DNA of 64,000 nucleotides from Escherichia coli (lineage in GTDB: Bacteria > Pseudomonadota > Gammaproteobacteria > Enterobacterales > Enterobacteriaceae): assembly GCF_003018255.1 (NCBI RefSeq), contig NZ_CP027440.1; one strand, given 5' to 3'. Positions 21,710 through 24,292 of this stretch are shown here, one piece after another. The notes under the pieces are model-generated. The model saw nothing but the letters and a program-made list of their open reading frames with translations. It did no database searches and was not told where the DNA came from. Both the position numbers and the translations under genes were made by a program. Every line of letters starts with the position of its first letter. Position 1 is the stretch's first letter.

Positions 21710-22255
21710 ATGAGTGCCAATGAAAACAACCTGATTTGGATCGATCTTGAGATGACCGGTCTGGATCCCGAGCGCGATCGCATTATTGAGATTGCCACGC
21801 TGGTGACCGATGCCAACCTGAATATTCTGGCAGAAGGGCCGACCATTGCAGTACACCAGTCTGATGAACAGCTGGCGCTGATGGATGACTGGAACGTGCG
21901 CACCCATACCGCCAGCGGGCTGGTGGAGCGCGTGAAAGCGAGCACGATGGGCGATCGTGAAGCTGAACTGGCAACGCTCGAATTCTTAAAACAGTGGGTG
22001 CCTGCGGGAAAATCGCCGATTTGCGGTAACAGCATCGGCCAGGATCGTCGCTTCCTGTTTAAATATATGCCGGAGCTGGAAGCCTACTTCCACTACCGTT
22101 ATCTCGATGTCAGCACCCTGAAAGAGCTGGCGCGCCGCTGGAAGCCGGAAATTCTTGATGGTTTTACCAAGCAGGGGACGCATCAGGCGATGGATGATAT
22201 CCGTGAGTCGGTGGCAGAACTGGCTTACTACCGCGAGCATTTTATCAAGCTGTAA
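21710..22255 (+). CDS. orn: Oligoribonuclease
   Basis: ORF track frame; start at internal ATG 21710 ([20 protein letters not shown]), 181 aa. Confidence 0.95.
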
Positions 22256-22465
22256 AATTTTTCCTGGTCACGTAAGCGCCGGAATCCACTTGCGGCGGCG
22301 TGATTTTGACGCTAAATTGAACGTCTTGCTGATAATTTCAGCACTTGAGATAAAAACTCAAAAAAAATTTTTTAGGGGGGTTGCAGAGGGAAAGATTTCT
22401 CGTATAATGCGCCTCCCGTAACGACGCAGAAATGCGAAAATTACGAAAGCAAAATTAAGTAGTAC

Positions 22466-22541
<76 letters not shown>

Positions 22542-22698
22542 AAATTTGAAAAGTGCTGCAAAGCACAGACCACCCAATCGCAGTATTTCGAATTGCGACA
22601 AGGCGGCAACTGAACGAATCCTTGGGAACTTACAAAAGTAAGTGACTAAGGTGAGTGAAGGCAGCCAAGGCAGTAGCGGTTCGAAAGACGAAGATTAA

Positions 22699-22774
<76 letters not shown>

Positions 22775-22809
22775 AAATTTGAAAGTGCTGTAAAGCACAG
22801 ACCACCCAA

Positions 22810-22885
<76 letters not shown>

Positions 22886-23154
22886 AATTCTTCTCTCAAT
22901 AAAATATCCACAGCGACGCGATGCGTTATTGCTGGTTTTTGTTGTCTCTGACAAACTCTTGTAAACAGAGTTATCCACAGCCTCAGGCCGTAATCTTAAT
23001 TTCAAAGAAACTTCGCACGGTGAATAGTATTTTTTTAACCTATTGATAGATAAGTTAAAAATTAAGATTTCGTTTTGTCGAGTCGATCACTTGACGATTT
23101 TATTCGTCTTGAATTGCAATGCGTTTTTATTTTTATTCACAAGCTGTGGATGAA

Positions 23155-24292
23155 TCAGGCGTCACGCGGTAACCCTTTTTCAATCACCCGAACCAGACGC
23201 TGTTTTTTGGGTAATTGCACTTCGACCACGCACGCATTTCGCCTCTCGATTTGCTGCGCAATCGCCCACGCTATGTGCTCATCAAGAAGTGGGTGCTCAC
23301 CTTTACGACTTTCCAGCGCTGTCAAAATCGTTTCATCCCAGGGGGCATTGCCTAATGCTACGGCGATATTACGCAGCCAACGCAGGTGACCTATACGGCG
23401 AATCGCCGAACCTTCCGTGACTTTTAAAAACTTCTCTTCACTCCAGGCGAATAACTCAATGAGTTCCGGTGCGTGTAGCGGCTTACGCGGGCTGAAATCG
23501 TCTTCTGTAGTGAGTTGCGAATAGCGATTCCACGGGCAGATAAGCTGGCAGTCATCGCAACCGTAAATACGGTTTCCCATTAACGGTCGCAACTCTTCCG
23601 GGATCGCCCCTTCCAGTTCGATGGTGAGATAAGAGATACAGCGGCGAGCATCGACGGTATATGGCTCGACGATGGCACCGGTCGGGCAAATCGTCATACA
23701 GGCCACGCATTTACCGCATCCTTCCTCGACTGGTTGATCCACGGGCAGCGGAATATCGACCAGCAATTCGCCTAAAAAGAAGAACGAACCGGCCTCGCGA
23801 TTGAGGATAAGTGAGTGCTTACCTGTCCAGCCAAGACCTGCTTTTTCAGCTAACGGGCGCTCGAGAATAGGCGCAGAATCGACAAACGGTCTAAAATTCA
23901 GCGAAACACAATGTTGCTGAATCATCTCGCCCAGCTTTTTGAGTCGGTTGCGCAGAAGCTTGTGATAGTCACGGCCCAGCGCATAACGGCTAACATAGCC
24001 GAGTTTGGGATTTTTCAGCGTGCTGGCAAATGCGGCGTTAGCAGGAAGGTAATTCATCCGAACGCTGATCACGCGCAGCGTACCGGGCAATAATTCGTGA
24101 GGACGAGCACGCAGCATACCGTGACGCGCCATCCAGTCCATTTCGCCGTGGTATTGTTTGTCCAGCCATGCTTGCAGTTTGGGCTCGGACGCGCTGAGAT
24201 CGGTATCGGTAATACCTACCTGCTGAAAGCCCAGTTCCAGCCCCCACTGTTTAATATTTTGCGCTAATTGATTGAGATCGAGGGGCTCTGAC

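Follow-up and report, generated by a model that had tools for sequence, protein, structure and literature searches.

An ERIC-like palindrome against the 5' end of glyX in the tRNA-Gly array of Escherichia coli, and its orthologues in Enterobacteriaceae and Erwiniaceae

Three tRNA-Gly(GCC) genes stand in tandem in the genome of a strain of Escherichia coli (contig NZ_CP027440.1, assembly GCF_003018255.1), and the two spacers that separate them are of very unequal length. This array was analysed within a stretch of 64,000 nucleotides, hereafter called the window. The question that it raises is what occupies the longer spacer, how this material came to lie at the boundary of a tRNA gene, and whether it could have any role there.

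The glyVXY array and the identity of its long spacer

The three genes were located by ARAGORN and Rfam, and comparison of their 76-mers confirmed that glyV, glyX and glyY are exactly identical, as the first-pass annotation had stated. The gene ends given by ARAGORN also bore out the spacer lengths, which are 157 nt (22542-22698) for the first and 35 nt for the second. As had been noticed by eye, the first 36 nt of the long spacer are nearly the same as the short spacer, the differences being one extra A and one C/T. The remaining 121 nt, at the place that had been assigned to them, appeared in the alignment with K-12 MG1655 as a single clean indel of 121 bp, whose placement is ambiguous by 2 nt (AA), the element measuring 123 bp if this AA is counted. 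Outside the indel, MG1655 and the window differed by only one substitution, in the second spacer, plus the alignment end. The statement of the first-pass annotation that K-12 has short spacers at both positions proved correct as well, since they measure 36 and 35 nt in MG1655, where the gene order is orn-glyV-glyX-glyY-yjeV-queG. The asymmetric array is confirmed as a real feature and not one of chance.

The native part of the spacer begins with AAAUUUGAAA directly after the CCA of glyV. In the native part of each spacer there is a small hairpin of 5 bp (22553-22566 and 22785-22798; GUGCUGCAAAGCAC), the pairing of which is kept among genera by compensatory changes (GTGCTG..GCAC, GTATCG..GATAC, GTGTCG..GACAC and ATGCTG..GCAT), and this suggests a conserved structural role of the small hairpin in the tRNA-Gly precursor. 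Upstream of the array, the block TCTCGTATAATGCGC(C/A/T)(T/C)CCCGTA is conserved in all genera examined, and the TATAAT hexamer listed in Table 1 probably serves as the -10 element of the glyVXY promoter. The leader of Escherichia is homologous to the element-free leaders of other genera.

Table 1. Features of the glyVXY array in the window, and mini-elements at other loci (locus number followed by positions)
Feature	Coordinates	Strand	Basis or remark
-35-like hexamer TTGCAG	22381-22386	+	read from the sequence
Putative -10 hexamer TATAAT of glyVXY, followed by GC-rich discriminator (GCGCCTCCC)	22403..22408	+	read from the sequence
glyV, tRNA-Gly(GCC)	22466..22541	+	ARAGORN; Rfam tRNA, 69.1 bits; same sequence as K-12 glyV
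Native 5' part of the first spacer	22542..22577	+	equals the entire glyV-glyX spacer of K-12
Insert: imperfect palindrome of the ERIC/IRU family, 'gly-type' lineage	22578..22698	+	indel relative to K-12, ERIC alignment, covariance model, fold
Apical hairpin core, ERIC central inverted repeat, CTTACAAAAGTAAGTGA	22629..22645	+	core match, 0 chance hits; invariant pairs at columns 63-66/71-74 of alignment A2
Right terminus AGAUUAA	22692..22698	+	GATTA(A/T) in every full-length copy and in almost every mini-element; ends at the glyX RNase P site
glyX, tRNA-Gly(GCC)	22699..22774	+	ARAGORN, Rfam
Short spacer, 35 nt	22775..22809	+	element-free allele of the same spacer
glyY, tRNA-Gly(GCC)	22810..22885	+	ARAGORN, Rfam
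Mini-elements	L014 5951-6005; L025 9191-9244; L029 1237-1295; L029 1405-1459; L011 14317-14368; L020 2915-2966		covariance model

Judged by its sequence, the insert is a member of the ERIC/IRU family, the MITE-like imperfect palindromes of about 127 bp found in enterobacteria. It was aligned with the 127-nt consensus of E. coli ERIC (RU-1) of Wilson & Sharp 2006, as printed in Delihas 2007 (PMC2759123, Table 1a), and in reverse-complement orientation relative to this printed consensus 95 of 125 positions were identical (76%). The score of this alignment was 57, against 4.7 +/- 2.0 for shuffled sequences, of which the highest reached 14. In addition, six generic ERICs of E. coli (puuR-puuC, queA-acpH, ydiJ-ydiK, metE-metR, dxs-yajO and ybhJ-ybhI) align with the insert from end to end, and a covariance model built from the orthologues of the insert matched all six over positions 1-125 of 125 with 88-103 bits. 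The same approach found a single copy in the 64-kb window, and when 5,426 complete E. coli genomes were searched by BLAST with the insert, the median number of related places in a genome was 8, with an identity of about 70-80%.

Terminal inverted repeats of the form (C/T)AATC..GATTA(A/T) are present, and the right end of the insert, GATTAA, directly adjoins position +1 of glyX. The features described for ERIC termini are a 5'-TA-3' at the terminal inverted repeats and a target-site duplication (PMC2229807, Table 1). A terminal TA is found at the left end of the element in some genera (CTAATC) and at the right end in others, as GATTAT; the indel of E. coli is flanked only by the 2-nt AA.

An Rfam 15 scan of 22000-23400 with E <= 1 returned no family within the insert; the three tRNAs were recovered together with two sub-threshold matches overlapping tRNA genes. 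A sub-threshold match to YrlA (Y RNA-like; 22724-22862, 40.3 bits, gathering score 69) spans glyX, the short spacer and glyY, and it is almost certainly due to the tRNA-like module of this family matching real tRNAs. Two open reading frames were discarded. The first, a mechanical ORF of 119 aa on the minus strand (22646-23005), runs antisense through glyX and glyY and is spurious, its repeated peptide coming from the two tRNA copies. The second, a sense ORF of 18 codons (GTG..TAA) with its stop at the end of the element, is excluded by indels of 1 nt and 5 nt among orthologues and by substitutions that are compensatory and not codon-like. On the queG side, 3' of glyY, DnaA boxes of consensus sequence (TTATCCACA and TTATTCACA) lie at 22971-22979 and 23133-23141, and with these boxes and datA so near to glyY the long-spacer allele shifts the distance between a strong tRNA promoter and datA by 121 bp.

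Distribution of the element in E. coli and in other genera

The 157/35 spacing is not a property of all E. coli, K-12 included. Among the 5,426 complete genomes, 1,622 (about 30%) matched a 701-nt query across the array over at least 80% of its length, and 1,605 records held the 121 nt at an identity of at least 95%. The genomes free of the insert include those of K-12, HS and O157:H7. A near-identical 'master' copy was sought by BLAST elsewhere in the E. coli genomes and none above about 90% identity was found, the best match in insert-free genomes having an identity of 60-90%.

Other layouts were also detected within the species. The array of E. coli A39 has two long spacers of 157 nt each (layout LL), and that of E. 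coli EH2252 has only two tRNA genes, with one long spacer between them; similar matches that come in two pieces, such as that of O111:H8 strain 7-54 11A, probably have this two-tRNA layout as well. On sequence grounds, the LL and two-tRNA arrays may be taken as evidence for unequal crossing-over among the identical tRNA genes.

Orthologues were looked for in one genome per species (GTDB r220), the scan requiring the 3' end of a tRNA-Gly followed, 70-100 nt further on, by the ERIC core. The 14 bases of this core had to match exactly, so that the sample is biased to conserved copies, although only as regards those 14 bases. The element was found in 21 species of 12 or more genera, belonging to the Enterobacteriaceae and the Erwiniaceae, and most species representatives do not have it. 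The carriers are five Citrobacter and four Escherichia (including E. whittamii and Escherichia sp. MOD1-EC7003), Klebsiella oxytoca, K. spallanzanii, Enterobacter asburiae, members of Kluyvera, Leclercia, Yokenella, Trabulsiella, Silvania and Pluralibacter and an Enterobacteriaceae MAG, and, within the Erwiniaceae, Pantoea rodasii and Mixta theicola. All 21 matches lie at the syntenic locus between orn and queG. Carriers have from one to three long spacers of 141-159 nt, in the layouts LS, SL, LL or LLL (the K-12 array, with its two short spacers, being SS), and in every one of them the end of the element, ...GATTA(A/T), stands directly against G+1 of the next tRNA. When several copies occur within one array, they are near-identical to each other. 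Moreover, a diagnostic 21-mer that was compared with metagenome contigs without anchoring it to any tRNA gave 14 matches, all 14 in tRNA-Gly spacers and adjoining the downstream tRNA.

The divergence of the element was compared with that of its neighbourhood. Between genera, identity to the window copy was 75-93% for the element, 48-62% for four-fold sites of orn, 50-77% for the leader and 47-87% for the 5' part of the spacer. The distances of the element correlate with those of orn (Mantel r = 0.78 over 120 species pairs; none of 5000 permutations was as high). The mean inter-genus distance was 0.134 for the element, 0.159 for orn overall and 0.464 for four-fold-degenerate sites, which places the divergence of the element about 3.5 times below that of the neighbouring four-fold-degenerate sites. 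Its orthology, this host-tracking divergence and its restriction to one locus argue together that the copies form one old lineage, inherited vertically at a single locus and under constraint, and that they are not recent insertions.

Some of the carrier loci show peculiarities of their own. The copy of K. spallanzanii (L022 977-1110) has 134 nt, because 9 nt of the apical right arm (AAGTGACTA) are present twice in tandem. In K. oxytoca and in Escherichia sp. MOD1-EC7003 the first tRNA-Gly is separated from the end of orn by about 1 kb of extra sequence, against about 210 nt in E. coli. Two Citrobacter genomes have ordinary ERICs, not of the gly-type, within a few kb of the array (L015 4782-4906; L009 2812-2936 and 955-1079), and the gly-type covariance model gave these 65-91 bits, against 140-150 bits for the gly-type copies of the same loci.

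The covariance model also revealed mini-elements of 52-59 nt (Table 1), in which the apical two-thirds are deleted and the termini and the basal stem are kept, still against +1 of a tRNA. They occur in spacers of Escherichia sp. ESNIH1, of UBA7338 and of the metagenome locus L029, and three others are found upstream of the first tRNA, in the transcribed leader of Pluralibacter, of Trabulsiella and again of L029. The deletions do not share their endpoints, which fall at short direct repeats of the two arms (e.g. GGCGGC), and this suggests that they came from independent slippage events. At L029 a full or a mini element precedes every tRNA of the array, a disposition that suggests an ancestral repeating unit consisting of element plus tRNA. 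The basal stem and the GAAAGACGAAGAUUA tail would seem, from these derivatives, to be the part most persistently retained.

The spacer hairpin and its possible processing

The RNA of the 157-nt spacer folds with -50.4 kcal/mol (z = -5.1), and none of 200 shuffled sequences was as stable. In the minimum-free-energy fold of the whole precursor the ERIC hairpin forms an independent domain; the pairing of the identical tRNAs with each other in that fold is an in-silico artefact. An alignment of 24 distinct orthologues (A2) was made with MAFFT, and its consensus structure, obtained with RNAalifold, is a hairpin of 31 pairs in which 97.2% of the cells are paired, whereas only 24-39% are paired in control structures whose partners were slid by 1-3 columns. 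Double changes affect nine pairs (30 cells), and none of 500 shuffles reached the observed values, in a shuffle control that ignores the relatedness of the sequences. Examples of covarying columns are 22:116, with GC in 9, AU in 8 and GU in 7 sequences, and 24:114, with GC in 13 and AU in 9.

Compared with the antisense strand, the sense strand gives the more stable fold in all 24 sequences, by a mean of 14.3 kcal/mol, and several G-U pairs are conserved on the tRNA-sense strand. Both the strand asymmetry and these G-U pairs favour a constraint at the RNA level in the transcribed orientation. However, the generic ERIC consensus has the same asymmetry (-61.8 vs -45.2 kcal/mol), and since hairpin and asymmetry are shared with generic ERICs, they may be traits inherited from the family and not adaptations to the tRNA context. 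Furthermore, conservation is 0.87 in unpaired and 0.91 in paired columns, 26 of the 61 unpaired columns being invariant, and as the unpaired columns are nearly as conserved as the paired ones, RNA structure alone is not the full explanation.

The element lies within the glyVXY unit, between the conserved promoter and glyY, and it is probably transcribed in the strain that carries it. A consensus scan of 22250-23050 gave no intrinsic terminator and no sigma-70-like site that could act as the internal promoter proposed in the first-pass annotation, a scan that also misses the real glyV promoter and is weak in this respect.

RN-WUU is the consensus for cleavage by RNase E. Unpaired motifs resembling it occur twice just after the CCA of glyV (22542-22547) and once at the right end of the element (AGAUU, 22692-22696). 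In the mechanism that we propose, the element would be transcribed inside the polycistronic glyVXY transcript as an autonomous hairpin of about 50 bp, and it would be released by RNase P at +1 of glyX and by RNase E in AU-rich single-stranded segments, the latter cutting in AAAUUU after the CCA of glyV and possibly in AGAUUA at the right end of the element. In K-12, glyVXY is known to give a single polycistronic precursor that RNase E cleaves by direct entry, for which adjacent single-stranded segments are needed (PMC3985628, PMC4191395). The roles of RNase E and RNase P at the right terminus are deduced from this processing of glyVXY and from the RNase E site reported in the 3' terminal inverted repeat of ERIC. 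The most likely role of the element would be that of a co-transcribed and constrained spacer hairpin which both enzymes remove.

As for its origin, the long spacer would be an old allele inherited vertically and not the outcome of recent transposition, and the arrays with short spacers, in K-12 and most species, would have arisen when the palindrome was deleted and when the identical tRNA genes underwent unequal crossing-over or gene conversion with one another. The series of layouts (SS, LS, SL, LL, LLL and two-tRNA) points to unequal crossing-over and deletion. Purifying selection would have acted on the spacer RNA, most plausibly as a cis-acting module for processing or folding of the precursor, and the element could influence in this way the processing or the folding of tandem identical tRNAs. 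Nevertheless, the many lineages without it indicate that it is dispensable, and as about 70% of E. coli and most of the species representatives lack it, any benefit must be small or conditional.

Competing explanations and relation to known elements

Taken as a whole, we consider it fairly probable that the long spacer is best explained by an old, vertically inherited ERIC lineage belonging to the tRNA-Gly array and forming a constrained, co-transcribed spacer hairpin. A bolder proposal is put forward only tentatively, as we would sooner doubt than accept it: an ERIC would have been captured in the tRNA-Gly(GCC) operon before the split of Enterobacteriaceae and Erwiniaceae and kept by purifying selection as an RNA module 5' of tRNA-Gly, either in full (about 123 nt) or as a mini-hairpin (about 55 nt), where it would tune processing by RNase E and RNase P or folding, or would yield a functional spacer RNA.

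Among the alternatives, the one that survives best, unlikely as we hold it to be, is that the excised spacer is a stable trans-acting RNA of about 120-150 nt, whether a sponge, a protein-binding RNA or a regulator. The invariance of so many loop positions, conserved like the stems, would fit such an RNA, as would the covariation with its sense-strand G-U bias, the exclusive presence at one locus and a 3' end that RNase P would define precisely. However, the insert matches no Rfam family, most strains and species do without it, and the recurrent central deletions, which leave only the termini, indicate that the apical two-thirds are not essential.

Slightly less credit still is given to a selfish element that would target the 5' boundary of tRNA-Gly(GCC) genes, being re-inserted repeatedly and conserved as the substrate of a putative transposase. 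Every copy, full or mini, does stand against a tRNA +1, several arrays have 2-3 copies, and the upstream flanks of the leader copies of Pluralibacter, Trabulsiella and L029 are without homology to the spacers. Against this, the divergence tracks the host, no donor copies were found elsewhere either by BLAST in E. coli or with the metagenome 21-mer, and the near-identity of the copies within an array is what duplication of a unit would produce. A fixed resident copy, besides, can persist without being competent for transposition, and we know of no ERIC transposase.

It is quite improbable that the locus is to be explained by an ERIC MITE that entered the glyV-glyX spacer through a recent and strain-specific transposition and has neither history nor function. 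The clean presence or absence relative to K-12, the occurrence in only about 30% of E. coli and the 2-nt AA, which could be a target-site duplication, would be in keeping with it, and polymorphism in the presence of ERICs among E. coli strains has been documented (Wilson & Sharp 2006, as cited in PMC10969869). Nevertheless, E. coli genomes hold no copy above about 90% identity elsewhere, copies of this one lineage stand at the identical junction in 21 species with host-tracking divergence, and it is present in E. whittamii and Escherichia sp. MOD1-EC7003, so that the orthologues may be said to have largely refuted this explanation already. The earlier suggestion of a small insertion at a tRNA boundary is consequently to be divided: a discrete ERIC/IRU element does lie exactly against +1 of glyX, but the recent, strain-specific insertion thereby implied does not agree with an allele that is old across genera.

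The weakest alternative, a duplicated glyV leader or an internal promoter giving glyX-glyY a transcription start of their own, is hardly credible. By the resemblance of CGAAAGACGAAGATTAA to CGAAAGCAAAATTAAG the 3' end of the insert had been likened by eye to the glyV leader, but the similarity of insert and leader does not exceed chance (best local score 17 vs 15.0 +/- 2.5 for dinucleotide shuffles, 214 of 1000 being as good), and this segment has its homologue in the right terminus of other ERICs. The scan gave no sigma-70-like hexamer pair, and the sole TTGAAA box would put its -10 inside the tRNA. The leader of Pantoea does end in ACGAAGATTAT, identical to the end of the element, but what matches in the leaders of Pantoea, Pluralibacter and Trabulsiella is left over from the element itself.

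Returning to the element itself, its likeness to ERIC/IRU/RU-1 (Sharples & Lloyd 1990; Hulton et al. 1991; Wilson & Sharp 2006) includes full-length homology, with the CTTAC..GTAAGTGA core, the form of an imperfect palindrome of about 125 bp, a place between genes in a transcribed region, polymorphism among strains and the same strand asymmetry. However, the gly-type is only about 71-76% identical to the E. coli consensus, its signature is CCTTRGGAGC..GACTAAGGTGAGTGAAGGCAG where that consensus has CCCCAGGAGC..GACTGGGGTGAGCGAACGCAG, and its termini are (C/T)AATC..GATTA(A/T) in place of TATAC..GTATA. In addition, generic ERICs are dispersed, whereas the gly-type occupies one locus, always against the 5' end of a tRNA, and is orthologous across many genera.

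The ERICs of Yersinia are reported to contain a site for RNase E within the 3' terminal repeat and to affect mRNA decay in an orientation-dependent way (De Gregorio 2005, as summarised in PMC2229807 and PMC10969869). Their hairpin is co-transcribed, as that of the gly-type probably is, and the gly-type right end, AGAUUA, fits an RN-WUU-like motif. In contrast, according to the same summaries, they lie 3' of protein-coding genes and exposure of their site depends on ribosomes, while the gly-type would lie in an untranslated tRNA precursor. A further parallel is offered by the Correia/NEMIS elements of Neisseria, palindromes of the MITE type that are transcribed within operons and whose RNA hairpin is the substrate of a processing nuclease (PMC2229807), as may by analogy be the case for the gly-type hairpin. 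These elements are, however, unrelated in sequence, are cleaved by RNase III, carry IHF sites and promoters and are dispersed in hundreds of copies. The 3' external spacer of glyW-cysT-leuZ acts as a sponge of sRNAs. With such functional spacers of tRNA operons the gly-type element would have in common that it is a non-tRNA segment of a precursor, that it would be released by RNase E and RNase P and that its conservation exceeds the neutral; unlike them, it originates in a repeat family, and most strains lack it.

A full-text search of the available literature gave no paper linking ERIC with tRNA-Gly, two apparent matches being first names of authors. Wilson and Sharp are said to have listed, in 2006, 14 ERIC sites absent from K-12, and the glyV-glyX site of E. 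coli may have been catalogued already. What appears to be new is a locus-bound lineage of ERIC that abuts a tRNA, is orthologous across Enterobacteriaceae and Erwiniaceae, is constrained in both sequence and structure and has given rise recurrently to mini-derivatives.

The presence of an ERIC element accounts for a frequent difference in the length of this region, close to the replication-control locus datA, which has consequences for annotation and for PCR across glyVXY. ERICs have been used in typing for more than 30 years, and the cause of their strong conservation is still unexplained. In this respect the gly-type lineage constitutes a natural experiment, as it combines a fixed address, an untranslated and heavily processed transcript, orthologues in many genera, natural deletion alleles in E. 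coli that have no copy, one copy or two, and naturally occurring miniatures. If it is true that an ERIC was captured here and has been kept under purifying selection, it would be the first with a demonstrable, locus-specific conserved function, and it would offer a handle on the conservation of ERICs. Should the constraint reflect a role in processing the tRNA precursor, the function of an ERIC would become directly testable with isogenic strains; should it not, the locus would still illustrate clearly how spacer alleles are shuffled and lost among identical tRNA genes in tandem.
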